The notes: generated by a model not told the origin, from the sequence alone. Counted from the stretch's first letter, positions 6,526-44,489 are shown. The stretch is DNA of 44,489 bases from a virus (IMGVR_UViG_3300031992_000041:64001-108489); one strand, 5' to 3'. Made by a program: numbers and translations.

Positions 6526-6536
6526 AACAGCAAGGC

Positions 6537-6689: not shown

Positions 6690-6692
6690 GCC

Positions 6693-7028: not shown

Positions 7029-7056
7029 ATCACAATTGAATAATATACGGAATGCA

Positions 7057-7791
7057 ATGGCAACAATCTACAAGGAAGGGTCTCGCGGTGAGGTAGTGAG
7101 ACAGATACAGAGGGTGGCAGGATGCTACCCCGACGGCGTGTGGGGCAGACGCACCACCGAGGCGGTCATGGACTGGCAGAAGGCCCACGGGCTCAATGCC
7201 GACGGCCTCGCAGGGCCTGCGACGCTGGCGGCCATGGGTCTGGCGGCGGCGAAGGCGGCGGTGACCACCGTCGCGGCGAAGGACTCCATCCGGCACGGCG
7301 ACATCACGCTGAAGAAGAGCAGGCGGAGGATCGACTATATAGTGGTACACTGCACGGCGACGCGCGAGGGACAGGCGAAGACCGTCGAGGACATCCGCCG
7401 CGAGCACAAGGCACAGGGATGGAGCGACATAGGCTACCACTACGTGGTGGACCTGAAGGGGCATACGCACCTGGGGCGCGACGTGGACATATCAGGATCG
7501 CACGTCAGCGGCTACAACACATACTCCATCGGCGTGGTGTACGTCGGCGGGCTGGAGAACGACCCGAGGAAACTGTATAAGGACCTGAAGGCGAAGGACA
7601 CGCGCACCGACGCGCAGAAGGCAGAACTGCTGTCGCTCCTGATGGACCTGAGGCGGCTGTACCCCAAGGCCAGGATACAGGGGCACCGCGACTTCTCTGA
7701 GGACAAGAACGGCAACGGCGTCATCGACCCGTGGGAGCGCATCAAGGAGTGCCCGTCGTTCGACGCGAAGAACGAGTACCGAAACATTTAG
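7057..7791 (+). CDS. Endolysin: peptidoglycan-binding domain plus N-acetylmuramoyl-L-alanine amidase (T7 lysozyme-like)
   Basis: DGVWGRRT and DGLAGPATL binding motifs; IVVHCTAT, DIGYHY, GHRD, KECPSF zinc-amidase motifs; start set at MATIYK. Confidence 0.92.
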   Translation: MATIYKEGSRGEVVRQIQRVAGCYPDGVWGRRTTEAVMDWQKAHGLNADGLAGPATLAAMGLAAAKAAVTTVAAKDSIRHGDITLKKSRRRIDYIVVHCTATREGQAKTVEDIRREHKAQGWSDIGYHYVVDLKGHTHLGRDVDISGSHVSGYNTYSIGVVYVGGLENDPRKLYKDLKAKDTRTDAQKAELLSLLMDLRRLYPKARIQGHRDFSEDKNGNGVIDPWERIKECPSFDAKNEYRNI

Positions 7792-7794
7792 GAT

Positions 7795-8448
7795 ATGGAT
7801 AAGACGACGCTACCACAGGAACTGATGTCGTGCTCGCTGCTGCACTTCGAGAGCGGCGTGCCCATCGACGACCTGAACCTGCGGCCCGACCAGAGGCGCA
7901 GGCTGGCGAGGGTGCAGCATGTCTACTGGCAGTGGGTGAGGAACCCGTGGCTGGACACCTACCAACTGTTCCGCCAGATGGTGAGGGGCCAGTTCTCCGG
8001 CGCACCGAACGAGACGCGTGCCGCCAAGATGGACGAGATGCTGTTCAAGTTCGTCCGCGACCACGTGGCTCCGCCGAGCCGTGCGGAGTCGCGGGCGAAG
8101 GTGTATGCCGCCGCCGACAAGATGATACAAATAGGCATGCAGAACGACGACGTGATGGCCCTCGACAAAGGCAGCAAGCGCCTGTACGACGTGGCCGGCC
8201 TGGACAAGCCGGAGGAGGACAGAGCCGACATGAACAGGCTTTCGTTCCTGCCGCCGGTGGTTACCACAAGTGCCAGGGAGGTTGACGAGACCAAGGAGGA
8301 CGTTGACGATCCTGAGATGAAGCGCATCATGGCCAAGTACGGCGGTTACGTGGACGATAAAGAGAAAGACATCAGCAGGATGGTCGAGACGATGGAGGCA
8401 CGGAGCGGCGTGACGGAGGAAGAGCGGCATGAGCAGGATAGGCAGTAA
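7795..8448 (+). CDS. Hypothetical protein, possible terminase small subunit (position only)
   Basis: 217 aa helical ORF overlapping the start of the large terminase. Confidence 0.45.
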   Translation: MDKTTLPQELMSCSLLHFESGVPIDDLNLRPDQRRRLARVQHVYWQWVRNPWLDTYQLFRQMVRGQFSGAPNETRAAKMDEMLFKFVRDHVAPPSRAESRAKVYAAADKMIQIGMQNDDVMALDKGSKRLYDVAGLDKPEEDRADMNRLSFLPPVVTTSAREVDETKEDVDDPEMKRIMAKYGGYVDDKEKDISRMVETMEARSGVTEEERHEQDRQ

Positions 8449-10345
8449 CCCGAACGTGAGCAGCGACCTGCTGGAAGCCCGTATGCTACCCAACGTGGAA
8501 GACCCTGATCCGGAATCAGAGTCGGAGGGCGGTTACATGGACTACCAGGGCGACGGGCGCTTCAAGGTGTATATGGCCCCGTGGCAGAAGAAGGTGCGCA
8601 ACTTCGGCTCGCGCTCCACAAAGGTGTTGGCAGGGCGCGCGACGGGTAAGTCGGCATTCCTTGCCTTCAATATGGCGGATGTCACCATCGGACTGCCAAG
8701 GATGATGGGCGGCTTCTGCGGTGCCAGTGCCAAGCAGAACTACACCCGTACCATGCCCAACGTACTGAAGGTGATGAACCTCCTGGGCTTTGCAGAGGGT
8801 TTCATTTATTTCCTCGGTCGGCCGCCCGCCAGGTTGCGATGGCCTATGCCGCTGGCAAAGCCCCGTGTGTGGGAGAACTGCGTCAGTTTTGCCAACGGGT
8901 TTGTCTGGCAACAAATATCACTTGCTGTCAAGGGTAGTGCTAACGGCTTGAACCTTGCTGCCCTGATGGGTGACGAGACCAAGTATATGCCGTGGCAGCG
9001 CGTGAAAGAAGAAGTACTGCCTACACTGCGTGGTGACTTCATGCCGCCGTCTGCACGTAGAGTGGAAAAACGGGAGTGGGGCAGGGGTACAGACCCCAAG
9101 GTGAACAACCACTGGCTCTCTCAGCTCTGGGTGAGCGATGCCGGACTGAACGCCCGCGAATGCCAGTGGGAGAAGGAGGCCGAGTTTGAGACCCACGAGG
9201 TCAACGAGAAGATCAAGGTGATGATGGCAGAACTCCGCTATCTGGAGAAGCACCATCCAAAACAGGCTGCGCTGCTTGCCAAGAACGACAGTTTTCTGAA
9301 AGAACTGTACGCCCTGCGCACTCAGTCTGAGACCTTCTGGCGTTTTAGCAGCATCGAGAATGCGGCACTCTTAGGAGGTGAGGCGTGGATTCGCCAGATG
9401 AAGAGGGAATTACCCGACCTGCTCTTCCGTCTGCAGATTCTGGGACAGCCCCGTGGCAATGCGCGCGAGGGCTTCTATTGTAACTTCTCTGAGTTGAACA
9501 CCTACGTCAGCGAGGAAATCACGGACTTGGTTTTCGACAAATACAGTACACGCATCAAGGGTAAGGCTCTTGACGTGCAGCGGTGGCCGACGGAATATGA
9601 GAGCGAGTCGCTGGACTGGGACCAGATGCAGCAGGACGGCGAGGACTGCTCGCTCGACCTCGACCTGGACTATCAGGAGCCGCTGCGCATAGCGCTTGAC
9701 GCCAACTCGGACATCAACTGCTTTGTGGTCGGCCAGACGCGCATACATCAGGGCCGTGCGGCGGTGATGGTGATGAAGGAGTTCTTTGTGCAGGGTGAGG
9801 TACGCCTGCGCGGACTGTCAAGGCTCTTCGCCCAGTACTACCGCCCGTTCCTGCGCCGTGGCTGCAAGGAGGTTATCTTCTACGTGGCCAGCAGCATCAA
9901 GCAGGGAGCCAGCAAGGCGTATGCCCTGGAGGAGTCTGAGCAGAGCCGTTTCGACATCGTAGTGGCCGACGAACTGACCAGTTTCGGCTTTAAGGTGACA
10001 CGTGCGGAGTTCACGTCATGGCGGCATGAGCGCAAGTACCAGTATATCAACGACTGCTTTGCAGGTGCTGCATCGCCCTCGATATTCATCAACCGCGAGG
10101 CAAACCGCTGTGTCTATCTCCGTGCGGCTATCGAGAACTGCGCCATCGTCCCAGGCACGTTCCGCAAATACAAGGATGCGGAGAAACTACGCTCGGAAGA
10201 CGGCATAGGAGGCGATAAGCGTGAGCGCGCCACGATAACCGACGCTTTCGACGACTTGATATTAGGGATCAAGGAATGTGCTGAGGGGAAGCCGAAGATC
10301 GGCGGCGGGCTGCGCGGGCGGTTCTCCAACCTGAGGACACAATGA
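8429..10345 (+). CDS. terL: Terminase large subunit
   Basis: Walker A GRATGKS, Walker B MGDETKY, nuclease acidic residues LDANSD and TDAFDD; upstream of portal. Confidence 0.85.
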   Translation: MSRIGSNPNVSSDLLEARMLPNVEDPDPESESEGGYMDYQGDGRFKVYMAPWQKKVRNFGSRSTKVLAGRATGKSAFLAFNMADVTIGLPRMMGGFCGASAKQNYTRTMPNVLKVMNLLGFAEGFIYFLGRPPARLRWPMPLAKPRVWENCVSFANGFVWQQISLAVKGSANGLNLAALMGDETKYMPWQRVKEEVLPTLRGDFMPPSARRVEKREWGRGTDPKVNNHWLSQLWVSDAGLNARECQWEKEAEFETHEVNEKIKVMMAELRYLEKHHPKQAALLAKNDSFLKELYALRTQSETFWRFSSIENAALLGGEAWIRQMKRELPDLLFRLQILGQPRGNAREGFYCNFSELNTYVSEEITDLVFDKYSTRIKGKALDVQRWPTEYESESLDWDQMQQDGEDCSLDLDLDYQEPLRIALDANSDINCFVVGQTRIHQGRAAVMVMKEFFVQGEVRLRGLSRLFAQYYRPFLRRGCKEVIFYVASSIKQGASKAYALEESEQSRFDIVVADELTSFGFKVTRAEFTSWRHERKYQYINDCFAGAASPSIFINREANRCVYLRAAIENCAIVPGTFRKYKDAEKLRSEDGIGGDKRERATITDAFDDLILGIKECAEGKPKIGGGLRGRFSNLRTQ

Positions 10346-10572
10346 AAAAGCGAGGGACAAGCCTTACGGCCTGCCCCTCTATTGAATCTCTCGGACGGCT
10401 ATTTGCCTATTCGTCCCGATCTTGTCGGTGTTTGTTTAATGTCGGATGCACAAGCGCTGTCTTCAGAGTCCGACGCGAAGACCCCACCTTTAAGGACTTT
10501 CGGGAACACCGCCACTGTTCGTGGTGCCTTATTTCCAGTGCAAAGGTACGGAGAATTTCCGAATCCACCAAA
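10345..10572 (-). ncRNA. Candidate small RNA of about 190 nt with its own promoter and terminator
   Basis: Minus-strand TTTG (10572-10569), 20 bp, TACCTTTG (10548-10541); hairpin 10352-10379 followed by a U-tract on the minus strand; no ATG-initiated ORF between them. Confidence 0.5.
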
Positions 10573-10618
10573 CTTTTCGGCGATTATTTTTACTACCAAC
10601 GTCCTTCCAGGCCTCGCA

Positions 10619-10653
10619 TGCCCTTGTCTTTCTGACAGGACGTTAATATCTTT
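10619..10653 (+). promoter_or_regulatory. Element-specific promoter motif, copy 2
   Basis: TGCCCTTGTC-N18-TATCTTT just upstream of ATG 10661. Confidence 0.6.
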
Positions 10654-10660
10654 CCAGCGG

Positions 10661-11359
10661 ATGATACAACTCGACACGATACGCAACTGCGACTGTCTGG
10701 AGGGGATGAGAGCCCTGCCGGACGGCTGCGTCGACCTGTGCGTGATGGATCCGCCGTACCAGTTCAAGGCGACGACTGGCGGCGGGGCGTTCGGCTCGCT
10801 GAAGGACGGCGGGAAGGGTAGGGCATACCATGCCGAGTTGTTCCCGATGTCGCAGGGCTTTGCCACCGATGTGCTCGACGAGGTGTGCCGCCTCTGCAGG
10901 ATCCCGAACCTATACGTGTTCTGCAACAAGGACCTGCTGCCGCAGTTGCTCGACTATGCGGTCGCACGCAGGCTGAACTTCGACCTGCTGACGTGGCACA
11001 AGACGAATCCAACGCCGACGTGCTCGAACAAGTACCTGAGCGACACGGAGTACATCGTGTTCATGCGGGGCAAGGGCGCACGGGTGTATGGTACGTATGA
11101 GACGAAGCGCAAGTACTGGCTGCAGCCGACGAACACCGACGACAAGAAGCGGTGGGAGCATCCGACCATCAAGCCGCTGAACATCGTCCGCCAACTGATA
11201 GTGAACAGCAGCCAGACGGGGGGGGTAATTTTAGACCCGTTCATGGGCAGCGGCACGACGGCCGTCGCCGCCCTGCAGGAAGGCAGGCGCTACATCGGCT
11301 TCGAGTTGGATAAGACGTATTACGAAAAGGCGCAGGAAAGAATATCGCTGACTGTATGA
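10661..11359 (+). CDS. DNA methyltransferase (N6A/N4C, beta class), solitary
   Basis: DPPY before ILDPFMGSGTT; start at MIQLDTIRNCDCLEGM; no restriction nuclease adjacent. Confidence 0.93.
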   Translation: MIQLDTIRNCDCLEGMRALPDGCVDLCVMDPPYQFKATTGGGAFGSLKDGGKGRAYHAELFPMSQGFATDVLDEVCRLCRIPNLYVFCNKDLLPQLLDYAVARRLNFDLLTWHKTNPTPTCSNKYLSDTEYIVFMRGKGARVYGTYETKRKYWLQPTNTDDKKRWEHPTIKPLNIVRQLIVNSSQTGGVILDPFMGSGTTAVAALQEGRRYIGFELDKTYYEKAQERISLTV

Positions 11360-11388
11360 CGGTATGCCGCGAGGGATGTTTGCCTTTC

Positions 11389-11422
11389 GCCCTTGACCGC
11401 GCACGTGTGAAACGCTATCTTT
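11389..11422 (+). promoter_or_regulatory. Element-specific promoter motif, copy 3
   Basis: GCCCTTGAC-N18-TATCTTT upstream of portal. Confidence 0.65.
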
Positions 11423-11450
11423 CTGACAGATTATCAACACGAAGACATCT

Positions 11451-13286
11451 ATGGGAAAGAAAGGAAAGAATAGCGGCAAAGGTGGCAGCGGGATAACCAT
11501 CCACAGGCCGAAGACGGAGAAGGAGTTCCGCGAACTGCACAACTCGCTGCTGGCGAAAAGGTACATGGCCATCGACATGCTGAAGCCGGGGCGCGTGAAA
11601 GACATCTCGCTGGCGCTCGGCGACGCTGCCAACGCCGAAGCCAAGGACATGGCGGCTGACATGGGCTGCGGTGCATGGAGCAGCGGCCCGCTGTCGAGGG
11701 TGGCCTGGTCGTTCGACGGGCGAGACAACACCGTGCAGAGCGTGTCAGGCCCCGACGGCAATCCTCTGGGATTGGGCTACGTGAAGTGGGGCGCTGCGAA
11801 CAACATCCCGTCGGTCATCCCCGCACTGGCATGGTCGAGCCCCTACACGGCTGCGCCCCTGCGCTATATCGCCGACCTGATATCGGGTCTCGGCGTAAGG
11901 CTGATGTACCGATTCCCCGACGGGGAACTGGTGCCTTACAAAGATGCCGGAGAGCGGCTGCGCGACAGGGTGGACGAACTGGAGGAGAAGGAGGCACCGA
12001 CGCTTGACGAGACGCTCGGCCTGACTGATGGCGTGGTGACGGGCGAACCGGACAGGAAGCCAGGCAAGGAGAGCAACGCCCTGAAGCGTGCCCGCGAGGC
12101 ACTGCAGGCATGGGAGCGCGTCTGGTACGGCGAGGACGAGCCCGACAGCCCGGAGGAGGGCGAAGGGAAGGAGCCGACCTATACGCACATCCCGGGCGCC
12201 AAGGAGTTCCTGGAGGACAACAACCTCGACCTGCACCTGTCGCAGTGCATGCAGGACCACACCTGTCTGGACATCCATTTCCCGACGGTGGGACTGCAGC
12301 GCGGGCGCAAGGGTAAGTGGAACCCCAGGGTGGTGCAGGTGGGCATGCTGCCCAGCCACAGCACACGCCTGGAGAAGATGAACGAGAACCGGCACATCAA
12401 CCACTGCTACTTCAGCGACCAGTGGCGCACGCTCGGCATCGGCGGCACAAGGACCGTCGGCACCGCCGAGACGCTGAAGGTGAAGATGTACGACGCCGTC
12501 ATGCCGCAGCACCTGCTCTCCGACCTTCGATACATCGTGGACTCAAACCAGAAGACACGCATCAAGAACCGTCCGACGTGGGTGGTCTGCCCGACGTTCT
12601 ACCCGTCGCTCAACAAGACTTACTACCCCCAGCCAGCCTGGTGGAGCGTCTTCACCTCGAAGGCCTTCGACTTCTCGGCCACCATCCTGTACGACAAGTA
12701 CAAGGCGCGCGAGAACTCCACGTCGTGGGGCAAGATCATCTATATCTCACTGGACTACCTCGACATGGTGTGCCACGACATGGGCATCGCCGGCGACAAG
12801 GACAAGATAGACAAGTACATCGACAACCTCGACCAGAGCATCGAGGACTTCCTGCAGCAGCGCGAGAACAACGGCAAGATGATGCGGCAGTTCATGTGGG
12901 AGGGCAAGGACGGCAAGCAGCAGAAGAACGTGGAGGTGGTCGATGTCGTAGAGACCGTCAGGGAGGCTGCGCAGGCCGGCAAGGACGAACTGGAACTGGC
13001 CACCTCGCCGATATTCCTGGCACTGGGCATCGACCCGCGACTCGTGGGCGTGCCGATGGTGAAGACCAGCAACGGCGGCACTGCCGTGCGCGAACTGCAC
13101 CTGCTGAAGCAGCAGCAACTGAACATCCACCAGCGGCTGTACCTGAACTTCCTGAACACGGCCGTCTGCGCCTTCAACGGATGGACCGAAGGCAATGCCG
13201 AGTTCCACATCGTGCAGCAGACGCTCACCACGCTCGACAACTCAAAGACCGGCACCGTGGAGACAATCGCCGGCGAGGAGGCATGA
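11451..13286 (+). CDS. Portal protein
   Basis: 611 aa after terminase; YVKWGAANNIP, YYPQPAWWSV and C-terminal GIDPRLVG..GGTAVREL resemble Bacteroidetes phage portals. Confidence 0.7.
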   Translation: MGKKGKNSGKGGSGITIHRPKTEKEFRELHNSLLAKRYMAIDMLKPGRVKDISLALGDAANAEAKDMAADMGCGAWSSGPLSRVAWSFDGRDNTVQSVSGPDGNPLGLGYVKWGAANNIPSVIPALAWSSPYTAAPLRYIADLISGLGVRLMYRFPDGELVPYKDAGERLRDRVDELEEKEAPTLDETLGLTDGVVTGEPDRKPGKESNALKRAREALQAWERVWYGEDEPDSPEEGEGKEPTYTHIPGAKEFLEDNNLDLHLSQCMQDHTCLDIHFPTVGLQRGRKGKWNPRVVQVGMLPSHSTRLEKMNENRHINHCYFSDQWRTLGIGGTRTVGTAETLKVKMYDAVMPQHLLSDLRYIVDSNQKTRIKNRPTWVVCPTFYPSLNKTYYPQPAWWSVFTSKAFDFSATILYDKYKARENSTSWGKIIYISLDYLDMVCHDMGIAGDKDKIDKYIDNLDQSIEDFLQQRENNGKMMRQFMWEGKDGKQQKNVEVVDVVETVREAAQAGKDELELATSPIFLALGIDPRLVGVPMVKTSNGGTAVRELHLLKQQQLNIHQRLYLNFLNTAVCAFNGWTEGNAEFHIVQQTLTTLDNSKTGTVETIAGEEA

Positions 13287-35702: not shown

Positions 35703-36854
35703 ATGGAAAAAGCAAAACGACCGAAAATCAGGTACCGGCTGACCTGGAACTACGGCAACCGACTTGACAGGCAGGGTCGATCGCCGGTGGCCCTGGAGTG
35801 CAGGCAGGGAACAAGGAAGATATACATATCGTCGAAGGTTATGCTCGCGGCAGGGCAATGGATGGACGGCAGGGTGGTCAACCACCAGAACGCAGACAAA
35901 CTGACCGTCTGGCTCGTGCGATGGATGAACTCCATCGAGGAGATCGAACTCGACGCGCTGCTGGCAGGCTCGCAGATGTCGCTCGCGCAACTGAAGTCGG
36001 CCGTCAGCGACAGCGCGCACCGGTCGGCCTCGCTCAGGGACTTCACGGAGAGGTTCCTCGACGGCGACTCCAGCCGCTGTGAGACCACGAAGCGGTCGTA
36101 CCGCTACATGGTGAACGACCTGGAGAAGGAGTACGGCAGCCTGACCGTTGGCGACGTGAACTACGACCTGATCGTGCGATGGCGCGAGGTCATGCGGCGC
36201 AGGAATCTCAGCGAGAACACCATCAGAGGCCGCCTGAAGGCATTGCGCTGCCTGATGGAGCAGGCGCGGCTGCGCGACATCATCGAGAGGAACCCGTTCG
36301 ACAGCATCACCATCGGCAACATAGGGGGCCGCAAGGGAGGACTGACCGTCGGCGAGGTTCGCAGGCTGGAGAGGCTCAACCTGTCCGGCAAGGAGGAGAA
36401 GGTGCGCGACCTCTTCCTGGTTGGATGCTACACGGGCCTCCGCTGGGGCGACCTGTCGTCGCTTGAAGAGTCGGAGATCCACAACGGCATCCTGCGCAAG
36501 ACCATGCACAAGACGCACCACGAGGTGGCCATTCCGCTGGCCACGCTCTTCTGGGGCAAGGGAATGCGTATCATGGAGAAGTACCCCGACATCCGCGTAC
36601 TGTCTAAATGCGTGTGCAACACCACCGCCAACCGCATCCTGAAAGACTTGGCCGAAAGGGCGAAGATCAAGAAACGCGTGTACATGCACCTGGCCAGGAA
36701 GACGTTCTCGCAGATGCTCAACTCACTGGGCATGGAAAGATCTGACATCACCATGCTCATGGGCCACCGCGACGTACGCACGACACTCACGCACTACATC
36801 TTTAACGACACTGACCGCATCAAGAAATCCGTGAAGAAAATCTTTAAGACATAG
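35703..36854 (+). CDS. Tyrosine recombinase (Bacteroidetes integrase type), probable shufflon recombinase
   Basis: Catalytic set YTGLRWGD (R), MHKT (K), HLARKT (HxxR), MGH..TTLTHY (H,Y); N-terminal arm-binding-like and SAM-like domains; ends 56 bp before the first array site. Confidence 0.93.
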   Translation: MEKAKRPKIRYRLTWNYGNRLDRQGRSPVALECRQGTRKIYISSKVMLAAGQWMDGRVVNHQNADKLTVWLVRWMNSIEEIELDALLAGSQMSLAQLKSAVSDSAHRSASLRDFTERFLDGDSSRCETTKRSYRYMVNDLEKEYGSLTVGDVNYDLIVRWREVMRRRNLSENTIRGRLKALRCLMEQARLRDIIERNPFDSITIGNIGGRKGGLTVGEVRRLERLNLSGKEEKVRDLFLVGCYTGLRWGDLSSLEESEIHNGILRKTMHKTHHEVAIPLATLFWGKGMRIMEKYPDIRVLSKCVCNTTANRILKDLAERAKIKKRVYMHLARKTFSQMLNSLGMERSDITMLMGHRDVRTTLTHYIFNDTDRIKKSVKKIFKT

Positions 36855-36909: not shown

Positions 36910-36926
36910 GCAATTCGTGCTGGGCG
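36910..36926 (+). repeat. Left terminal 17-bp inverted repeat / recombination site
   Basis: GCAATTCGTGCTGGGCG equals the reverse complement of 44473-44489. Confidence 0.9.
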
Positions 36927-37192
36927 TTGGAACTCGTATATATAGTTCCGCTGACTTGGATAGTTTGTCTAATGGCGTATATGGATGGAATACCAACGGC
37001 GAGACGCCTACTCACTCTCCATTTACTGGCGGTGGCACTGTATTGCAATATGGAGATTGGGTGAAGACACAGATTTGCCAATCCTATGGTGGAGCAACGT
37101 ATAGCAGGAACAAACAAGGCTCTGGGGACTGGACTTCTTGGGTGCGTTGCGATAACTATGGAACATCGACACCTGCCGACCTCGCTTCACTG
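36920..37192 (+). CDS. Cassette C1 (knob-like domain plus linker, read-through into C2)
   Basis: LGVGTRIYSSADLDSLSNGVYGW...SRNKQGSGDWTSWVRCDNYGTSTPADLASL; no stop. Confidence 0.8.
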
Positions 37193-37480
37193 CTGGGCGC
37201 GTTATGCTTTAACAAGATTGGTAACACTAATCCAGACAACGTCCATCATACTATGTTTTTTAGGTTTGGAGGCTATACGGTAAAACACTCGTCAGGTTCT
37301 TATGCTGGAGCCTATGGTCTCGGTGTGTCTTTTGTGGAGGAAGGTGTAAGCGATACATACTATGACGAATTTATTTTGGTTCACAACACCGACACCATCT
37401 ATTATCGTAGTGCGACTATCGCCAATAATGGTACTTTGGATTGGAGTACCATAAATTGGAAAACAGTGACAAGTGTATAA
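37193..37480 (+). CDS. Cassette C2
   Basis: Starts at CTGGGCG; LGALCFNKIGN...IYYRSATIANNGTLDWSTINWKTVTSV*; hairpin 37491-37508 follows. Confidence 0.8.
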   Translation: MGALCFNKIGNTNPDNVHHTMFFRFGGYTVKHSSGSYAGAYGLGVSFVEEGVSDTYYDEFILVHNTDTIYYRSATIANNGTLDWSTINWKTVTSV

Positions 37481-37509
37481 CAAAACAAGAGGGAGGCTCA
37501 GGCCTCCCA

Positions 37510-37737
37510 TTATTGCGTCACTTTTGTTGCTTGTATACTTGCCCAAGAAATCCACGAGCCATTTAAACCAAATCTCGTCCTAAATAGCACATTAGGGTTG
37601 CCTGCATAGTCGTTTGGTACATATACTTGCAAAGTAATTATATTGTTTGTTGCAGCAATTACTATAAACATCCCCCATTTGTAGATAGCCCCCGGTATTC
37701 TGACGTCTGCATTATCCATTCTATAAACTCCTGGGCG
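37510..37737 (-). pseudogene. Cassette C3, 5'-truncated by the site at 37731
   Basis: RPGVYRMDNADVRIPGAIYKWGMF...FRTRFGLNGSWISWASIQATKVTQ*; in-frame stop just upstream, no site of its own. Confidence 0.7.
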
Positions 37738-37991
37738 GAATAGTTACAGAACTTGGTTCATCAGATGATCTATTCGACCTGCCTTACCCAGGCTATTATT
37801 ATTGGAATTCAATATCCCAGGCACCGGCGAATACACCAAATGGAGGACCCCAAGGTAGTTATGTCGAGTATCGTGCTTACATGTCTATCAAAACACTGAG
37901 AGTATACAACAATGGAGGAAGGATTTACACCAATATCTATTGGAACGGATGGAAAGGTTGGAATCAAGTCACATTGACACCGGTTTCGTGA
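37731..37991 (+). CDS. Cassette C4
   Basis: Hand translation LGGIVTELGSSDDLFDLPYPGYYYW...IYTNIYWNGWKGWNQVTLTPVS*; hairpin 37996-38016. Confidence 0.8.
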   Translation: MGGIVTELGSSDDLFDLPYPGYYYWNSISQAPANTPNGGPQGSYVEYRAYMSIKTLRVYNNGGRIYTNIYWNGWKGWNQVTLTPVS

Positions 37992-38019
37992 TAAGAGGTA
38001 GGGCCAAGCCCTACCTTTT

Positions 38020-38298
38020 TTATTGAACGGTTGGGATTTCAATCCATGTAGATGGCCACACAAAATCTTGCCCCTTTGGAGTGTACTTACACCTATAATA
38101 TTTCTTTCCGTTACCAATATATGTTATTTCTTGATAAGCATAGTCTCTAACAATTATACACCTGCCCAAACCATAGCAACCGATTAACCCATTGATAGTC
38201 TGCTGACCAAACCGAAACAAGGTATTTTGCTCACCTGCCATATCATCTAAATTTGTAATAGGATTATTTGGGGCAATTACGATAGAAATTACGCCCAG
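38020..38298 (-). CDS. Cassette C5
   Basis: LGVISIVIAPNNPITNLDD...YYRCKYTPKGQDFVWPSTWIEIPTVQ*. Confidence 0.8.
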   Translation of the reverse strand: MGVISIVIAPNNPITNLDDMAGEQNTLFRFGQQTINGLIGCYGLGRCIIVRDYAYQEITYIGNGKKYYRCKYTPKGQDFVWPSTWIEIPTVQ

Positions 38299-38306
38299 AA
38301 TTCGCG

Positions 38307-38579
38307 CTGGGTGGCACAATACAAGGAATAGTTACTCCTGATACCTATGATAGTGCGGACAAAAACGGCTTATATCAAGTAAATGGGTCAAGCGCAACAG
38401 ACCCTATTCTTGACTGGGGACGTCTATTCACGGCTGTTCAAGGTGTAACCCATTGTCTTCAAATCAAATATTGTGCCAATGCTAAAACAATTATTATAAG
38501 GTACAAATACAAAACCTCTTCCATGAGTGCTGCCGAGTGGACTGCGTGGAGTAAAGTAAATGTAACCGCTCTCACATAG
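38307..38579 (+). CDS. Cassette C6 (site variant CTGGGTG)
   Basis: Hand translation LGGTIQGIVTPDTYDSADKNGLYQV...IRYKYKTSSMSAAEWTAWSKVNVTALT*. Confidence 0.8.
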   Translation: MGGTIQGIVTPDTYDSADKNGLYQVNGSSATDPILDWGRLFTAVQGVTHCLQIKYCANAKTIIIRYKYKTSSMSAAEWTAWSKVNVTALT

Positions 38580-38595
38580 AGGGCGGTTATTACAT

Positions 38596-38928
38596 CTGGG
38601 CGTTCCTGATATTAGTGGATTATTCAATGCATTCAATATTCCAGCAAACTCAGACTTAAATGATTTGACTAGTTATCCTTGCTACAAAAGTCCAGGACAA
38701 TCGGTAAGTTCAACATTGTCAAACATACCATCTGACTTAACCACATCGGTTGGCTTTATTCTTCTTAACTTTAAGCCTTATACAGGTGTATCATATTCAG
38801 TCCAAGTCATATTGCAAACTGTATTCGATAGGACAACAACTCCGAAGATTTGGGCGCGTGGACAGACCGACCATTTGGATAATAGCAAGTGGACCGTTTG
38901 GGGGCGTGTATCATTGACAACAGTATAA
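38596..38928 (+). CDS. Cassette C7
   Basis: LGVPDISGLFNAFNIPANSDLNDLTSYPCY...IWARGQTDHLDNSKWTVWGRVSLTTV*; hairpin 38931-38956. Confidence 0.8.
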   Translation: MGVPDISGLFNAFNIPANSDLNDLTSYPCYKSPGQSVSSTLSNIPSDLTTSVGFILLNFKPYTGVSYSVQVILQTVFDRTTTPKIWARGQTDHLDNSKWTVWGRVSLTTV

Positions 38929-38954
38929 AAAGAGGTAGGATTAATTTTCTACCT

Positions 38955-39233
38955 CTATAATGTTCTCCAATCGGTCCACACTGAGTTATATCTGTACCTT
39001 GTATATATCATCCCGTTTCTGTCATAAAGAGTTTGCGTAATGTAATAATCCGATATATTGGCTACATCAAGGAAGAAACGTGTTGTGTTAAGAAAGCCTG
39101 TCGGAAGATTATTTGGAGCGGTTGTTAGGACATAAAACGTACTTGTTTTATATCCATCATTTCCTATCTCATTGTCTAAATCGGACGTTGCAGATGATTG
39201 AAATATCCGTGTCTTTATACCAACTGCGCCCAG
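38955..39233 (-). CDS. Cassette C8
   Basis: LGAVGIKTRIFQSSATSDLDN...IYTRYRYNSVWTDWRTL*. Confidence 0.8.
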   Translation of the reverse strand: MGAVGIKTRIFQSSATSDLDNEIGNDGYKTSTFYVLTTAPNNLPTGFLNTTRFFLDVANISDYYITQTLYDRNGMIYTRYRYNSVWTDWRTL

Positions 39234-39241
39234 AATTCGCG

Positions 39242-39535
39242 CTGGGCGGAATAAGCACAACTATAACATCAGATAATGACCTTGATAATATTACGGGAAC
39301 TGGTATCTACAAGTTTACTAATTCTACCCCTCAGAACAGTCCTGTTGAACTTGGTGTTGTTGTTGTTTTTTCAGCGCGTCTATCAGGAGATATCTATGGT
39401 GTCATCCAGTTTGCATCAGACACAAGAGGAGGGCGTAACAAAGAAAGAATAGTAAACATATATTACAGGGTCGCATGGACTAATGCTACTAACGGATGGA
39501 GTAAGTGGGCAATGATTAATACCACTGAGGTCTGA
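39242..39535 (+). CDS. Cassette C9
   Basis: LGGISTTITSDNDLDNITGTGIY...YYRVAWTNATNGWSKWAMINTTEV*; hairpin 39542-39564. Confidence 0.8.
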   Translation: MGGISTTITSDNDLDNITGTGIYKFTNSTPQNSPVELGVVVVFSARLSGDIYGVIQFASDTRGGRNKERIVNIYYRVAWTNATNGWSKWAMINTTEV

Positions 39536-39568
39536 TAATAAGAGGTGGGCTAACAACCCACCTCATTA

Positions 39569-39883
39569 TTATGATACAAATGCTATTTTCTTCCATTCAG
39601 TCCAAGTATACGGAGTTGACATATTAGTCACGTTCCTAATCCATATACCATCTAACTGAATGAATATCTGTGTCTCGAACGCAGTGATATCGCCATAAGG
39701 CTTAATGTTAATTACACTGAATCCATAATTTGTTGATGCTGTTTTTGGCATATTTACAACAGTCTTTGATATAGAAGCGGATTGACATCTGTAGGATGCC
39801 CTTAATGTCAATTGGTTCAAGTCATCATTACTGTTGATTTTTTCATCCGCTGCAATAGAGCCTACGACACATGCCACGCCCAG
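39569..39883 (-). CDS. Cassette C10
   Basis: LGVACVVGSIAADEKINSNDDLNQL...IWIRNVTNMSTPYTWTEWKKIAFVS*. Confidence 0.8.
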   Translation of the reverse strand: MGVACVVGSIAADEKINSNDDLNQLTLRASYRCQSASISKTVVNMPKTASTNYGFSVINIKPYGDITAFETQIFIQLDGIWIRNVTNMSTPYTWTEWKKIAFVS

Positions 39884-39885
39884 AA

Positions 39886-40155
39886 TCAAGAAAGAGTAAA
39901 CGTCTTCCAAGGTGAGAATGTTCCACCTACACTCCAAACATTACGAATCTTTATATAACGAAGTTGATAATCAAATTTTACCTGAATACCCCTTTTTGAT
40001 GTAGGGTAACCGGAAACACGACCAACTTTGACGTTGGTGTATAGAAGGAATATATCGTCTGTTATTCCTTGGTCATAACAATACCATCCAGGTTCGAGAG
40101 AACCTAAGAATTCGTCACTCTTATCTGTTATTGCGGTGTATATCACCCCGCCCAG
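39886..40155 (-). CDS. Cassette C11
   Basis: LGGVIYTAITDKSDEFLGSLEPGWY...KIRNVWSVGGTFSPWKTFTLS*; stop 2 bp before the next site. Confidence 0.8.
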   Translation of the reverse strand: MGGVIYTAITDKSDEFLGSLEPGWYCYDQGITDDIFLLYTNVKVGRVSGYPTSKRGIQVKFDYQLRYIKIRNVWSVGGTFSPWKTFTLS

Positions 40156-40163
40156 AAGGGGTT

Positions 40164-40454
40164 CTGGGCGGTATTACTACACCAATATCTCAAAATGACA
40201 ACATTGATAATTATCGAAATTGCGGGAGATTTGCATGCGCATCAAATGCAATAGCATCGACACTAACAGGGCTCCCGTCTGGCTATAATAGTGGAGGATT
40301 CATCTTATTCGTTCTTCCAAGTTCGCAATCTGATAACGGTTTTAGGATTCAGTTGATGGTTAATTATAGGTGTACTGCTGTATACATACGTGCTTATCAA
40401 AGCAATGTTTGGGAAGGTTGGCGTACAATAACAACAAATGCCGTAACAGCATAA
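40164..40454 (+). CDS. Cassette C12
   Basis: LGGITTPISQNDNIDNYRNCGRF...YIRAYQSNVWEGWRTITTNAVTA*; hairpin 40455-40480. Confidence 0.8.
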   Translation: MGGITTPISQNDNIDNYRNCGRFACASNAIASTLTGLPSGYNSGGFILFVLPSSQSDNGFRIQLMVNYRCTAVYIRAYQSNVWEGWRTITTNAVTA

Positions 40455-40519
40455 AGGATGTTAGCGCATACCAACATCCTACACAGACAAAGCAAATGGG
40501 AGGTATAAGCCTCCCTTTA

Positions 40520-40626
40520 CTATACTGGTGTATTTGTCAACTTGTACCAATCAGAAACAATGCTTGAACCTCCATTGATATCCCTGCAATATATTCTTAA
40601 AGTTGAATCTCGCACATAGAATTGCA
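40520..40626 (-). pseudogene. C13: orphan 3' fragment paralogous to C18
   Basis: LQFYVRDSTLRIYCRDINGGSSIVSDWYKLTNTPV* versus C18 VQFYVRDTSLNTYCRDINGGSGTISSWFKFTNTPVQ*; own hairpin 40498-40515. Confidence 0.75.
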
Positions 40627-40696
40627 AAGTTATGGTGTGCTTGTGTACGCTCTTCCGCATCGTCCTCCTTTGAACAGTGAACGAACAATAGAACCT

Positions 40697-40849
40697 CTTG
40701 GCGGTGAGGCTGATTTCGCAAATGTCACTACCTTAAAAATAATCAGGGGTTCAGATGGTTCGGCAGATATTGGTCATATCACCTTAACTAATTCATGTTC
40801 AGAACTAAGACAATTTCTCTATTCTTACATTCCAGTAAGAACAACATAA
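40697..40849 (+). pseudogene. C14: short cassette at variant site CTTGGCG
   Basis: LGGEADFANVTTLKIIRGSDGSADIGHITLTNSCSELRQFLYSYIPVRTT*; hairpin 40862-40882. Confidence 0.45.
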
Positions 40850-40895
40850 GTTAAGAAAAAGAAGGGAGGTACTTCCTCCCTTTTTTACACTGTCA

Positions 40896-41225
40896 TTAGA
40901 ACGACACTTTCTTTACGCTTAAAACTGCGGTTTTCCCGTTTTTTATGGTCACTGCAATAGTAAATCCGTCAGTCTGTGAGTTATTTTTTTCAATACTAAG
41001 CGTGGATGATGACAATGCCCCATTGCTCCATAAGACCTGTACGTCTTTCTGCCATGTCGCCCTGTCGCATACGGCCACAAGCAAATAGTTTTCTATGTTT
41101 TCTCCAATTAAATTGATGCTATATATCTTTATAGCAGACCCACCTCTTGCGCTTGTCCATTGATAACTCCCAGACACGCTAACAGAATCAGAAATAACCT
41201 CTGTCGTGTTGCCCACTCCGCCCAG
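40896..41225 (-). CDS. Cassette C15 (non-knob, beta-rich)
   Basis: LGGVGNTTEVISDSVSVSGSYQW...TAVLSVKKVSF*; lacks the terminal W-x-x-W. Confidence 0.75.
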   Translation of the reverse strand: MGGVGNTTEVISDSVSVSGSYQWTSARGGSAIKIYSINLIGENIENYLLVAVCDRATWQKDVQVLWSNGALSSSTLSIEKNNSQTDGFTIAVTIKNGKTAVLSVKKVSF

Positions 41226-41238
41226 CAATAATAATAAA

Positions 41239-41526
41239 TTATGTAATTAATGTCAATGATACTTGGTACCAGCCATCACTCCATCTTGTACCATTCCAAG
41301 TACGGATATATTCTTGAGGAAAAATATTGTTTGGATAGATTTTCTGAATCAATCGTGTACCATTTATATTGCTTGTTGGTAGTACTTCAAGCCTAAAACC
41401 AGAACCAACAACAGGACAATTTGCAAGCGTCGCGGCAGTAGCGGAATCAGTACAATAGTACGCTCCAATACCAATAATATCATTAAGATCTTGATTGGCA
41501 CTAATCTTTGTTGCTGTCCCGCCCAG
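41239..41526 (-). CDS. Cassette C16
   Basis: LGGTATKISANQDLNDIIGIGAYY...GFRLEV...YIRTWNGTRWSDGWYQVSLTLIT*. Confidence 0.8.
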   Translation of the reverse strand: MGGTATKISANQDLNDIIGIGAYYCTDSATAATLANCPVVGSGFRLEVLPTSNINGTRLIQKIYPNNIFPQEYIRTWNGTRWSDGWYQVSLTLIT

Positions 41527-41535
41527 CACGAGATT

Positions 41536-41811
41536 CTGGGCGTGTCGTGGATAACGATTTTTAAAAGTGGGGCTCTTTCTGAATGCTATCGAAACGGTTT
41601 GTATGCTATACAGTACAACAATGTTGCAGATATCACGGACATTCCTTGCAATGGACATGGATATATGATCACCCTGAGTGCTACGAACGTATCTTCCACA
41701 ACGTTTGCGCAACTATATGTCTCAATTGTTGGTAGAGCGTTTTTTCGTGTTAGAAATGGTGCTGTTGTTCTGTCTAACTGGAAAGAATTGACAGCAACGG
41801 GAATATCGTAA
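41536..41811 (+). CDS. Cassette C17
   Basis: LGVSWITIFKSGALSECYRNGLY...FFRVRNGAVVLSNWKELTATGIS*; hairpin 41813-41838. Confidence 0.8.
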   Translation: MGVSWITIFKSGALSECYRNGLYAIQYNNVADITDIPCNGHGYMITLSATNVSSTTFAQLYVSIVGRAFFRVRNGAVVLSNWKELTATGIS

Positions 41812-41836
41812 AAAAGGGAGGTTTTTTAGCCTCCCT

Positions 41837-42133
41837 TTACTGTACTGGTGTATTTGTAAACTTGAACCAGGAAGAAATTGTGCCTGAACCACCATTGATA
41901 TCCCTGCAATATGTATTTAAACTTGTATCTCGCACATAGAATTGCACAGAACTTCCACTAATAAATAGATTTATAAGAAAGCCAAAAGCACGTTCAGGCA
42001 TGTCTTGGAACTTACCTGTATTAATAACAGCCGTAGGCACAGCCATTAATATATTCTTTCTCAAACTTGCAATACCTTCAAATGTATCTGGCGTCGAGGA
42101 ATCGGAGGCTGCAAGTGTTACAAATGCGCCCAG
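41837..42133 (-). CDS. Cassette C18
   Basis: LGAFVTLAASDSSTPDTF...YCRDINGGSGTISSWFKFTNTPVQ*. Confidence 0.8.
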   Translation of the reverse strand: MGAFVTLAASDSSTPDTFEGIASLRKNILMAVPTAVINTGKFQDMPERAFGFLINLFISGSSVQFYVRDTSLNTYCRDINGGSGTISSWFKFTNTPVQ

Positions 42134-42213
42134 CGCACCAAAATATATCATAGTATTAGATTTAGAAATGATTGACAAGGCTCACTGTGGTGGGCCATTT
42201 TTCATATAAATAA

Positions 42214-42245
42214 TTTGGTAGTTTCAGATATTATTCCTATCTTTG
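42214..42245 (+). promoter_or_regulatory. Housekeeping promoter inside the array
   Basis: TTTG (42214-42217), 20 bp, TATCTTTG (42238-42245); preceded by a hairpin plus T-run at about 42179-42202. Confidence 0.7.
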
Positions 42246-42262
42246 CTGGCAAATAAAACATA

Positions 42263-42517
42263 ATGAATATGCAAACAGACATTAGTAACAAAGTACCACA
42301 AGGGACTTACGAAGTAGCCACACGAGAAACTTTTCCTGGAAAAGTAATGTTTTCTGATGAAAGTATAATACTGACCCCTGAGAATGATAGTAACAAACAA
42401 ACGAGGCTATATTCCGACAATAATAAACATGAGATAAGGATTTCCACTCGTCACAGGAAAGATGAAAAGCATCCTTGGAGTGAGTGGGAATTGAAGTCTA
42501 CTATATCTAATAGATAA
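42263..42517 (+). CDS. Stand-alone small protein with its own ATG and promoter
   Basis: 84 aa, no CTGGGCG site; ends ISTRHRKDEKHPWSEWELKSTISNR; hairpin 42519-42545. Confidence 0.7.
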   Translation: MNMQTDISNKVPQGTYEVATRETFPGKVMFSDESIILTPENDSNKQTRLYSDNNKHEIRISTRHRKDEKHPWSEWELKSTISNR

Positions 42518-42559
42518 TAAAAGGAAGGCGATGAGCCTCCCTTTTATCTATTATAAATC

Positions 42560-42823
42560 TTACTGTCTTAATGTTACTTCCACTTTGTACCAAGGCTTCC
42601 ATTCGTTGTTCCACATAACTCTAAATCCAAGGCCTGAAACTTCAATATTGTTTGGCCACTGAAGTTGAAAAATTTGTGTCCCTGCTTTCCAAACTAAGAG
42701 CAGCGAGCCTTGTGGTCTGAAATTATTTAATGGAGCAGTACCACTGCCAGACCACGAATATACACCTGCACTTACAATATTATTTAGGTCGTTTTGATTT
42801 GTAATGATAGTTGCTTCGCCCAG
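42560..42823 (-). CDS. Cassette C19
   Basis: LGEATIITNQNDLNNIVSAGVYSW...FRVMWNNEWKPWYKVEVTLRQ*. Confidence 0.8.
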   Translation of the reverse strand: MGEATIITNQNDLNNIVSAGVYSWSGSGTAPLNNFRPQGSLLLVWKAGTQIFQLQWPNNIEVSGLGFRVMWNNEWKPWYKVEVTLRQ

Positions 42824-43007
42824 AACTTCCACCAATAAATAGATTTATAAGAAAGCCAAAAGCACGTTCAGGCATGTCTTGGAACTTACCTGTATTAATA
42901 ACAGCCGTAGGCACAGCCATTAATATATTCTTTCTCAACCCTGCAATACCTTCAAATGTATCTGGCGTCGAGGATTCGGAGGCTGCAAGTGTTACAAATG
43001 CGCCCAG
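42824..43007 (-). pseudogene. C20: 3'-truncated near-identical copy of C18
   Basis: 4 mismatches to 41950-42133 over 184 bp; joined out of frame to the C19 site. Confidence 0.85.
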
Positions 43008-43016
43008 AACCACAAT

Positions 43017-43196
43017 TCAAGGCAGCGCGATTCCTTCATGTTTAATCCATGGCCCCCATATTTCTCCATTGAGAGTCCTATGGTAAAACGTATTTTTTGC
43101 AGTTGTACCAGCCGTCAAACGTTGCACAATATGAGTAGTAGTCGTACCCATGACAAGAACCTCTAAGACGAAGCCATCTCGGGTTAACTCTTCTGG
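43017..43196 (-). pseudogene. C21: 5'-truncated cassette
   Basis: Hand translation PEELTRDGFVLEVLVMG...FYHRTLNGEIWGPWIKHEGIALP*; cut by the plus-strand site at 43193. Confidence 0.75.
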
Positions 43197-43489
43197 GCGG
43201 TATTCCTCAAACTATCATTAACGACGGTAGCCCAAATTTAGATCTCAATACTTTATTTACATGTGGTATCTATGCGGTAGCAAAATCATCCGCTTGGCCA
43301 AATATTTACAACAAGCCTACAGGCGTTTTGACAGGTGGTAACATTATAGTACTTGTTGGAGGAAACAACAGTTACAGATTACAGATTATCATATCGTTAA
43401 ACGGCATGATTTTCTTAAGATACATCCATACCGATTCTGCCAACAACACCCACTGGTTCAAGATTCAACTGACAGATGACGGACAATAG
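43193..43489 (+). CDS. Cassette C22
   Basis: Hand translation LGGIPQTIINDGSPNLDLNTLFTCGIY...FLRYIHTDSANNTHWFKIQLTDDGQ*. Confidence 0.8.
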   Translation: MGGIPQTIINDGSPNLDLNTLFTCGIYAVAKSSAWPNIYNKPTGVLTGGNIIVLVGGNNSYRLQIIISLNGMIFLRYIHTDSANNTHWFKIQLTDDGQ

Positions 43490-43508
43490 AAGAGGAGGGC
43501 AAAGAAAC

Positions 43509-43562
43509 TTAAACGAGGTAAAAGGTTGCACCTTCATTAATAAGAAAGTTTTTAACGCCAAG
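43509..43562 (-). pseudogene. C23: 17-aa mini-cassette at variant site CTTGGCG
   Basis: LGVKNFLINEGATFYLV*. Confidence 0.55.
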
Positions 43563-43572
43563 CACGAGATTT

Positions 43573-43836
43573 CTGGGCGTGTTGCCTATCCTTAATAGCA
43601 ATGGTACAATCACTGACTTGGATACTTTGAGTAACCCAAGTGGGTGGTATAAATTTAACGCTTCACAGAATGTTGCCAATGTCCCAACTAGTTTTACTGA
43701 TGGATTCGTTTGGATAATGAGAACTTCTGACAACAACATTTTCCAAATGGCTCTTAAATATGATTTTTCTATGTTTGTGATTAGACTTAAATGGGGACAA
43801 AATTGGACTAATTGGAAGAGTATATCATTATCATAA
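43573..43836 (+). CDS. Cassette C24
   Basis: LGVLPILNSNGTITDLDTLSNPSGWY...IRLKWGQNWTNWKSISLS*; hairpin 43840-43863. Confidence 0.8.
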   Translation: MGVLPILNSNGTITDLDTLSNPSGWYKFNASQNVANVPTSFTDGFVWIMRTSDNNIFQMALKYDFSMFVIRLKWGQNWTNWKSISLS

Positions 43837-43864
43837 ACAAGAGGTGGGTTAATGCCCACCTCTA

Positions 43865-44173
43865 TTATGCTTTAACCCAGTCTGTCCATTCAGAATTTAA
43901 ACCAGCCCTATAGACGCGCAGATAAACGCCGTTATTTCCAAAAGACTGCATACCGACACCCGTAACGAATAAAACTTGAACCGACCTTGAATTGACATTC
44001 CATCCATAGGAAAGCAAAAGTGCCTGGTCTTTGGTAATACCTGTAGGGCCGTTAACCCAATTGTTCTCGTTGGTAATATAATATAAACCGTAGTCTATGG
44101 CTTGGTTGAAGTCAAAGTTTGGGACAGGACCTCTTCTCTTGAGATAGCCCGTTATAAGATTATCCCCGCCCAG
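43865..44173 (-). CDS. Cassette C25
   Basis: LGGDNLITGYLKRRGPVPNFDFNQAIDYGLYY...YLRVYRAGLNSEWTDWVKA*. Confidence 0.8.
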   Translation of the reverse strand: MGGDNLITGYLKRRGPVPNFDFNQAIDYGLYYITNENNWVNGPTGITKDQALLLSYGWNVNSRSVQVLFVTGVGMQSFGNNGVYLRVYRAGLNSEWTDWVKA

Positions 44174-44479
44174 CGCGGAGGCAAGTTGTGCTAAATATGT
44201 TGGTCTTGTAAGAATGTCTGTTGAATAATCCATAATCCAATCACTCCAAGTTGGAGTTGGAGCGTTAGTTACCATAGTTCTTTTATAGGTAATTCCTTCT
44301 GCCATCTTTATAAAGTACTGTATAGTATAATTATTTGCGACTTCTACATACAAAACTCCATAGGTGTTTACAGGCCAATAAGTACCTTGGTATGCATATA
44401 TTCTATATTTACCTTGCGTCCGTAATGCGTCAATGTCAGCATCTGTCTTGTTCCCATAATCAATTGTGTTAGCGCCCAG
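44174..44479 (-). CDS. Cassette C26 (knob-like domain plus linker, read-through into C25); frame stays open to the right edge
   Basis: LGANTIDYGNKTDADIDALRTQGKY...YKRTMVTNAPTPTWSDWIMDYSTDILTRPTYLAQLASA; upstream codons CAA TTC GTG up to the window end. Confidence 0.8.
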
Positions 44480-44489
44480 CACGAATTGC
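44473..44489 (-). repeat. Right terminal 17-bp inverted repeat / probable expression-site junction
   Basis: Reverse complement GCAATTCGTGCTGGGCG, identical to 36910-36926; the match is cut off by the window end. Confidence 0.85.

Follow-up and report, generated by a model that had tools for sequence, protein, structure and literature searches.

We identified, in the cassette array of a large rumen phage of the Prevotella type, an array built on a seven-base recombination site (the heptamer CTGGGCG), truncated cassettes whose broken ends abut intact heptamers. These breaks are probably the scars of rare secondary-site events that joined a cognate heptamer to look-alike DNA matching it only as T(T/C)CTG at its 5' end. 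The array lies in the window analyzed here, a stretch of 44,489 nucleotides (IMGVR_UViG_3300031992_000041:64001-108489) that forms the final 44.5 kb of one 108-kb phage contig and has a GC content of approximately 60% over most of its length and 39% in the last 7.6 kb. The low-GC end is the cassette array, which adjoins a gene for a tyrosine recombinase (Table 1). The window contains 29 exact heptamers, 20 of them in the array, which also carries one CTGGGTG variant (38307). All 21 array sites share one reading frame (Leu-Gly-Gly/Val/Ala/Glu) and each heads an open reading frame (ORF) of 75-204 aa; the array has about 20 intact cassettes plus two-module ones. For comparison we used related loci and phages, designated L001 to L014.

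Natural recombinants in the window and in loci L005-L010 located the crossover. The same upstream flank is found before three different cassettes and, conversely, cassette C19 is found behind three different flanks; the sequence changes precisely at the edges of the heptamer. The crossover therefore falls inside the 7 bp, and the heptamer acts as the overlap (strand-exchange) region. Across 63 sites of five arrays, the heptamer is invariant and is preceded by T at position -2 in 51 sites and at position -1 in 41; the same 63 sites revealed no other conserved flank or arm information and no inverted repeats. This heptamer serves recombinases that are only 37-62% identical. Normal recombination could be followed in the L005-type phage, for which nine contigs from eight samples carry the same ten cassettes over a constant 3207 bp in five arrangements, with the constant region joined to five different cassettes. 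Because neither the cassettes nor the length change across the five arrangements, normal recombination is inversion-only, and the L005-type array is an active shufflon of this kind. Inversion without segment loss was thus demonstrated in the L005-type array rather than in the window.

Breakpoints read against intact alleles

Our census covered every stretch of the array without a site-headed ORF, and profile and homology searches accounted for all of them. The original prediction, that cassettes C3, C20 and C21 had been cut by off-target recombination, was correct about the fragments themselves: all three are real cassette remnants and each ends, at the position given, exactly at an intact CTGGGCG. 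It had also proposed that intact alleles be read at the breakpoints, and for C21 this reading agreed with it. A word-indexed search with the C21 fragment retrieved P0001, a protein of 139 aa in which the constant region is fused to intact C21; it is 96% identical over the fragment and is carried on six contigs. The antisense strand of the intact allele (L005 10238-10246) reads TTCTGGagc where the window junction reads TTCTGGGCG, so that TTCTGG lies in exact register with the site. On the strand of the C22 site, the native C21 DNA runs ...GGGTTAACTCTTCTGGAGCATCTG... and the window ...GGGTTAACTCTTCTGGGCGGTATT...

The second scar could be read within the window itself. Intact cassette C18 reads TTCTGtGCa at 41943-41951 where the C20 junction again reads TTCTGGGCG (intact copy, GGAAGTTCTGTGCAATTC; junction, GGAAGTTCTGGGCGAAGC). 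In plus-strand text these stretches are ttgcacagaac (41942-41952) and tcgcccagaac (42816-42826), as originally reported. This junction joins C20 to the heptamer of C19 (42817-42823) with the frame shifted by one base. A further fragment, C13, is broken at the same base: it matches 41812-41949 at 84% (blastn) and C18 residues 62-97 (blastx), its junction reads CTTTGCA, and the headless cassette C14 adjoins it with zero spare nucleotides.

A third, independent scar is present in L009 and L010, assemblies that come from two different samples. In both, a cassette of 131 aa breaks off after its first 30 residues; the native DNA reads gtCCTGatgc (ACATGTCCTGATGCG) and the junction gtCCTGGGCG (ACATGTCCTGGGCGCAGC), and the fusion is out of frame and leads once more to a C19 homologue. 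We searched IMG/VR for this scar and for its predicted reciprocal junction (a flank ending in ...GCGAATTA followed by CTGATGCGTAC) and found neither. Nor did the L003 and L011 arrays contain partial duplicates that would provide further pairs of native and scarred sequence; in these arrays only site flanks and terminators repeat.

Read from the scars against their intact alleles, the pseudo-sites are TTCTGGAGC (C21), TTCTGTGCA (C18) and TCCTGATGC (L009/L010). All three scars share the first three to four bases of the heptamer, preceded by T or C, and take the 3' remainder from the cognate partner. The probability that three scars would share CTG in register by chance is approximately (1/64)^3. 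The earlier suggestion that a full heptamer recombines with DNA sharing only (T/G)CTG or TTCTG is therefore borne out as regards CTG, found at all three native breakpoints, but not as regards the preceding base, which is T or C rather than T or G.

The positions of the breaks and the base composition of the cassettes provided additional evidence. Three of the five fragment junctions in the census coincide exactly with the 5' boundary of a complete heptamer and a fourth is at the C18 pseudo-site; a random breakpoint in the 7560-bp array would hit one of the 20 heptamer edges with a frequency of about 0.3% each (about 2% with tolerance). Among some 15,000 array positions, only four non-cognate 9-mers keep CTG intact and match at 7/9 positions or better, the C18 pseudo-site being one of them; in its own array, the C21 pseudo-site belongs to a group of nine that reach 6/9. 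Words from the left half of the heptamer are rarer than expected inside the cassettes of three arrays (CTGGG, 10 observed vs 24.6 expected; CTGG and TTCTGG behave alike), whereas the right-half word GGGCG is not depleted (11 observed vs 9.7 expected).

The profile match of C3 indicates that it lacks only about 10-20 residues plus its site. No intact C3 allele was recovered in two word-indexed protein searches, a HMMER scan of 1.84 billion representatives or peptide-pattern scans of IMG/VR and the JGI metagenomes, which returned only the ORF of the window and distant relatives (at most 35% identity). The same integrase or the same C3 ORF is carried by contigs of the same phage, ENA ERZ27257202 and Logan SRR9006729/30; scanning the JGI metagenomes with the recombinase produced no match. 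Similar gaps occur at two sites of L003 (19129 and 14554), where, as judged from translations rather than homology, a short or decayed C-terminal cassette end adjoins the heptamer. These gaps may be of the same headless kind.

The single sites that follow stop codons, which the original prediction had counted among the off-target scars, have a different history. Those at 39877, 41219 and 43001 do sit right after stops (at 2, 13 and 9 nt, respectively). Yet the site at 38596 does not follow half a terminator, as had been thought, because the preceding hairpin is complete (12-bp stem, -19.8 kcal/mol, z -5.2); the true half terminator is at 43490-43500, in the stub described below. The tandem junctions at 38596 and 43001 are kept in L005, each with another cassette downstream, and the sites are old working sites and not scars. 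We also rejected as a degenerate site the CTTGGCG at 40697, which is inside headless C14 and has no Leu-Gly counterpart in the C14 homologue.

Proposed secondary-site recombination and its alternatives

To account for these junctions, we propose that a cognate site and a near-cognate sequence are now and then brought together by the recombinase. For the exchange to go through, only two to three bases adjoining the first cleavage, at the CTG end, would have to pair, and the rest of the overlap could be heterologous. We infer from the junctions that the scars were made by the recombinase, as well as which strand was exchanged first and how the heterologous junction was resolved. A need for identity beside a single cleavage site may be reflected in the three natural junctions, which have only (T/C)CTG of the heptamer's 5' end in common, and in the scarcity of left-half words within cassettes. 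If the pseudo-site lay on the sense strand, inverted relative to the cognate site, the exchange would yield a tandem arrangement (site, N-terminal fragment, heptamer, other cassette) plus a leftover C-terminal fragment. The C20|C19 and C13|C14 junctions fit these two products, and the present arrangement could be reached from them by later legitimate inversions. The scar in L009/L010, a tandem out-of-frame fusion, would belong to the sense-strand class too. With the pseudo-site on the antisense strand, the outcome would instead be a headless cassette pointing away from an intact site, as in the C21|C22 junction and probably in C3|C4.

The most serious rival, particularly for the headless class (C3 and C21), is illegitimate recombination independent of the recombinase, in which short direct repeats would have led to replication slippage or template switching. 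The involvement of the heptamer would then follow only from its being the most repeated short word of the array and from the tolerance of events that keep a working site. We regard this as possible but unlikely. The C21|C22 junction does look like a deletion of about 150 bp between TTCTGG direct repeats with no reciprocal product, the interval lost from C3 is short for recombinase synapsis, and the stub at 43490-43562 shows that deletions away from sites occur. Slippage cannot, however, generate the tandem fusions C20-C19 or L009/L010, which are joins of the inversion type with only 3-5 nt shared. Furthermore, the three testable junctions all meet the 5' edge of a complete heptamer in one and the same register, the headless geometry recurs (window 37731 and 43193, probably L003 19129 and 14554), and the pseudo-sites used are among the best near-cognates.

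Alternatively, the recombinase could cut a cognate heptamer and fail to complete the exchange, leaving the host to repair the break by microhomology-mediated joining, so that the enzyme would set only one end of each scar. In every scar one of the partners is an intact cognate heptamer, only 3-6 nt of microhomology are involved, and such abortive cleavage would explain net deletions without a reciprocal product. We consider it improbable. C13 and C20, two independent fragments of C18-type cassettes, are broken at one and the same pseudo-site, and the near-cognate matching is enriched beyond CTG, both of which favor recognition of the second site by the enzyme. Moreover, the cognate heptamer is whole at every junction, with no lost or filler bases. 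Assembly chimeras of mixed array arrangements, which the mixed arrangements of relatives and the repeat of the left boundary flank at the contig end might suggest, are very improbable given that the junctions share only 3-6 nt, far below assembler k-mers, that the L009/L010 scar is identical in both assemblies, that the tail-to-site junction of C21 is found in six further contigs and that the C3 ORF is matched in two Logan contigs from other runs (an ORF match that leaves aside the state of C3 there).

Several observations weigh against secondary-site recombination, in which the part played by the recombinase is deduced from DNA sequence. The N-terminal remnant of C21 is absent from the contig, making this scar a net deletion, and the L005-type array never loses cassettes between direct cognate repeats, so that deletions made by the recombinase should be rare. 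C13 and C20 are 84 and 97% identical to C18, respectively, and C13 reads CTT rather than CTG; they are perhaps not the halves of one event and may record two separate events at the same hot spot. The stub scar does not lie at a heptamer, an indication that ordinary deletions happen too. Finally, the GC-rich backbone holds nine exact heptamers, at about chance frequency and with no sign of avoidance (4509-4517, a full TTCTGGGCG with the TT flank, and 1360, 9829, 16765, 20167, 20244, 21298, 22739 and 29184), along with more than 50 near-cognates with CTG, also at about chance frequency. Their tolerance implies that other determinants restrict the reaction and that neither CTG nor the heptamer alone is sufficient. 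The idea of a minimal CTG-centered requirement thus stands as a lower bound on the homology seen in the scars, but not as a sufficient condition. Context must matter, and AT-rich flanks, proximity and accessory factors are candidates.

The recombinase, the array and its relatives

The array is most likely a shufflon, a multiple-inversion switch that exchanges the C-terminal receptor-binding domain of a small protein of the tail tip and is driven by the adjacent recombinase. As in other shufflons, a tyrosine recombinase adjoins many short in-frame sites in both orientations, each heading an alternative C-terminal segment. The recombinase matches PF13102 (E-value 3.3e-9) and PF00589 (4.6e-12), has the layout of Bacteroidota integrases (a SAM_5-type N-terminal domain and a catalytic domain), and shares R247, K270, H329, R332 and Y365 invariantly with five relatives. 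Its closest phage matches are integrases of Bacteroides and Porphyromonas (at most 30% identity), and the nearest genome matches are rumen Prevotella and Prevotellaceae metagenome-assembled genomes (MAGs). Serine invertases such as Min, Cin and Gin, which combine a 2-bp crossover with an enhancer, are a different kind of enzyme from the adjacent tyrosine recombinase, and we saw no serine recombinase beside the array.

Table 1. Coordinates of the recombinase gene, the array and the cassettes, fragments and sites discussed in the text (window numbering).
Feature	Coordinates	Strand	Description and evidence
Tyrosine recombinase	35703..36854	+	Presumed shufflon invertase, 383 aa; Pfam PF13102 and PF00589, PHROG integrase
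Cassette array	36920..44479	.	About 39% GC within about 60% GC phage; 21 in-frame sites
C3	37513..37730	-	Headless cassette body (72 aa; 37513-37728) against plus-strand site of C4; profile positions 69-132 of 132, E 1.5e-9
C4	37731..37991	+	Intact heptamer 37731-37737, partner at C3 scar
Tandem site	38596..38602	+	After stop and full hairpin of C6; functional, kept in L005 with a different downstream cassette
Tandem site	39877..39883	-	Just past stop of preceding cassette
C13	40523..40630	-	Last 36 aa of C18-type cassette, broken at same base as C20
C14	40631..40849	+	Headless cassette of another class; blastx 41%, 75 aa, L014_11397p residues 35-109
Tandem site	41219..41225	-	Just past stop of preceding cassette
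C18	41837..42133	-	Intact 98-aa cassette; pseudo-site TTCTGTGCA, minus strand, 41943-41951
Cassette-like domain	42263..42517	+	84 aa, no site, own ATG, 129 nt from C18 site; profile E 1.2e-4, positions 57-124
C19	42560..42823	-	Intact heptamer 42817-42823, cognate partner at C20 scar; 96% identical to L005 12750-13045
C20	42824..43007	-	First 61 codons of C18-type cassette behind own site 43001-43007; 97.4%, 190 nt, 41944-42133
C21	43017..43192	-	Last 57 aa (43020-43190) and stop of 91-aa cassette, cut at TTCTGG; intact allele P0001 / L005 10145-10420, 96-97%
C22	43193..43489	+	Intact heptamer 43193-43199, partner at C21 scar
Stub	43490..43562	-	Degenerate site CTTGGCG (43556-43562), 17 codons, then half terminator (43490-43500)

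In L001, L002, L003 and L005, the far end of the array borders a small gene that encodes a constant N-terminus of 45-52 aa, which ends just before a heptamer so that the cassette continues in frame. The window contig stops 10 nt past its last heptamer, and the constant gene is outside it. Read as its reverse complement, this 10-nt end repeats the flank to the left of the first site (GCAATTCGTG; 36910-36926 vs 44473-44489), and the assembler probably broke on this repeat. Either the array has a 17-bp inverted repeat at its termini, or mixed arrangements caused the assembly to break here. The AlphaFold model of P0001 shows a confident C-terminal domain, a six-strand beta-sandwich (mean pLDDT 76.5, with 80-92 over most of the domain), whose best structural matches are the tips of phage receptor-binding proteins and pyocin fibers (rmsd 2.3-3.0 A over 83-93 columns), at weak E-values of 2e-3 or weaker.

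Other features of the arrays were also recorded. Two-module cassettes with an in-frame internal heptamer occur at 36920-37480 and 43865-44479 in the window and at 17886-18443 in L003, and the internal heptamer follows a linker similar to the final stretch of the constant region of relatives (…DLAS-L/V-LG…). Some sites are back to back, with a spacing of 8-10 bp in the window, about 20 bp in L003 and 2 bp in L012. This variation, together with the recombination of single sites, led us to reject the idea that each pair is one palindromic site. The site-less cassette-like domain at 42263 has a Bacteroidota-type TAnnTTTG-like word (TAATTTGG) upstream (window 42134-42517) and might be expressed on its own; a database look-up found no record for this 84-aa ORF. 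The stub at 43490-43556 has no homology beyond the site to the L005 cassette in the same position. L011 (Prevotellaceae MAG RUG12019, 5523-12798) combines a recombinase 53% identical to that of the window with a similarly sized array of 25 copies of CTGGGAG; its cassettes are separated by a terminator hairpin that is strongly conserved (AAAGTGGGGAT / ATCCCCACTTT). The L005-type phage carries a second integrase-like gene (L005 14708-15865), whose neighbors look bacterial in several contigs (TetR, short-chain dehydrogenase, pseudouridine synthase) and are phage genes in others (YopX, methyltransferase), which suggests that both integrated and free forms exist.

Six window cassettes (38289-38602, 40163-40445, 41536-41838, 42534-42829, 42992-43196 and 43573-43865) are 91-98% identical at the nucleotide level to L005, a phage whose recombinase is only 37% identical and whose backbone barely aligns. 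The blocks of homology start at heptamers and end near terminators, suggesting that cassettes are exchanged between phages as units. Four phages have arrays of 37-43% GC inside genomes of 56-65% GC (window 36920-44479; L003 10991-19746; L005 10145-13337; L011 ~5500-12800), for which a shared foreign cassette pool and a need for AT-rich flanks around a short site are candidate reasons. Tentatively, and with more doubt than confidence, the heptamer could be the whole sequence-specific site for a family of Bacteroidota phage recombinases. It could then be a common currency for cassette swaps between unrelated co-infecting phages, sustaining an integron-like pool in which CTG-anchored events lose, split and occasionally create cassettes. 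The basis for this reading is the use of one heptamer by enzymes only 37% identical, the 91-98% identity of cassettes between dissimilar backbones and the presence of arrays of about 39-43% GC in genomes of 56-65% GC. The scars themselves offer no evidence for the capture of new domains, which the original prediction had inferred from them, because both tandem fusions are out of frame.

Comparison with known systems and significance

The closest parallel to a homology requirement confined to one end of the overlap is IntDOT, the recombinase of the Bacteroides element CTnDOT. Biochemical work has shown that the first strand exchange of this enzyme depends on homology and the second does not: 2 matching base pairs, or even 1, at the first cleavage are enough, and mismatches are tolerated elsewhere in the 7-bp overlap (PMC2034462, PMC2817482). 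The likeness, a Bacteroidota tyrosine recombinase with a 7-bp overlap and ordered exchange, fits scars that share only the 5' CTG; as regards domain layout, it rests on the PF13102, PF00589 and Bacteroidota integrase matches rather than on direct sequence comparison. IntDOT, however, integrates and excises an element with the help of arm-type sites and accessory factors, whereas the enzyme described here drives multiple inversions in a phage and its order of strand exchange is read from the junctions only.

Organization of the array more closely recalls the shufflon of the IncI plasmid R64, where the tyrosine recombinase Rci also adjoins an array of C-terminal segments, acts by inversion only on asymmetric in-frame sites (sfx), one flank of which is free. 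The sfx sites consist of a 7-bp core and a conserved 12-bp arm (19 bp in total), and R64 has four segments. By comparison, the sites studied here conserve 7 bp and two weak T positions, which sets them apart from strict Rci/sfx sites, and the target is a phage tail-tip protein with some 20 cassettes rather than the PilV pilin.

Phage examples have also been described. In Bifidobacterium prophages, the tyrosine recombinase Rin operates a shufflon of receptor-binding proteins through an 11-bp site, TTCCCTAACCC (PMC6109161), and a BV01-like Phocaeicola phage has a three-cassette tail-fiber shufflon with a 10-bp motif, TGGGAGAACT (PMC13596623), which resembles the CTGGGAG of L011. As far as the available portions of these accounts go, both systems share with ours a recombinase that flanks variable receptor-binding C-termini and short asymmetric sites, and differ in size, with a few cassettes for Rin and three for the BV01-like phage against approximately 20 intact plus two-module ones here. 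The same portions make no mention of secondary-site scars (PMC6109161, PMC13596623).

Off-target joining is known in several other systems, and the scars refine this known biology, secondary-site recombination being an old, classical property of recombinases. Phage lambda uses secondary att sites and the Cin invertase of phage P1 uses quasi-sites. The integron integrase IntI follows a comparable three-base rule with its GTT triplet (PMC2811028), and integron off-target activity has also been reported (PMC10127599). In all of them, as proposed here, a cognate site rarely recombines with DNA that shares a few bases at the cleavage point, which leads to rearrangements and gene fusions. They differ in that IntI acts on folded single-stranded attC, that Cin is a serine invertase and that our evidence comes from natural scars and not from selection experiments. 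Integrons have folded attC sites and an IntI with an extra domain. The array is not itself one: its 7-bp sites lie inside coding frames, conserved inverted repeats are absent, and the recombinase scores 31 bits with the NCBIfam integron-integrase model, for which the cut-off is 265.

By means of a receptor-binding shufflon, a phage can hedge against variable host surfaces, and the growth and decay of such arrays are hardly documented. The array described here, which is unusually large and eroded, adds something new, a natural record, checked against intact alleles, of the sites at which the enzyme slips and of the direction of its need for homology. The directional rule read from the scars, with identity at the 5' CTG and heterology tolerated 3' of it, bears on the use of short-site invertases as engineering tools, where off-target activity matters. 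If true, the rule would extend the relaxed-homology mechanism of the IntDOT type from integrative elements to a phage invertase and would explain why this array is more eroded than those of its relatives.

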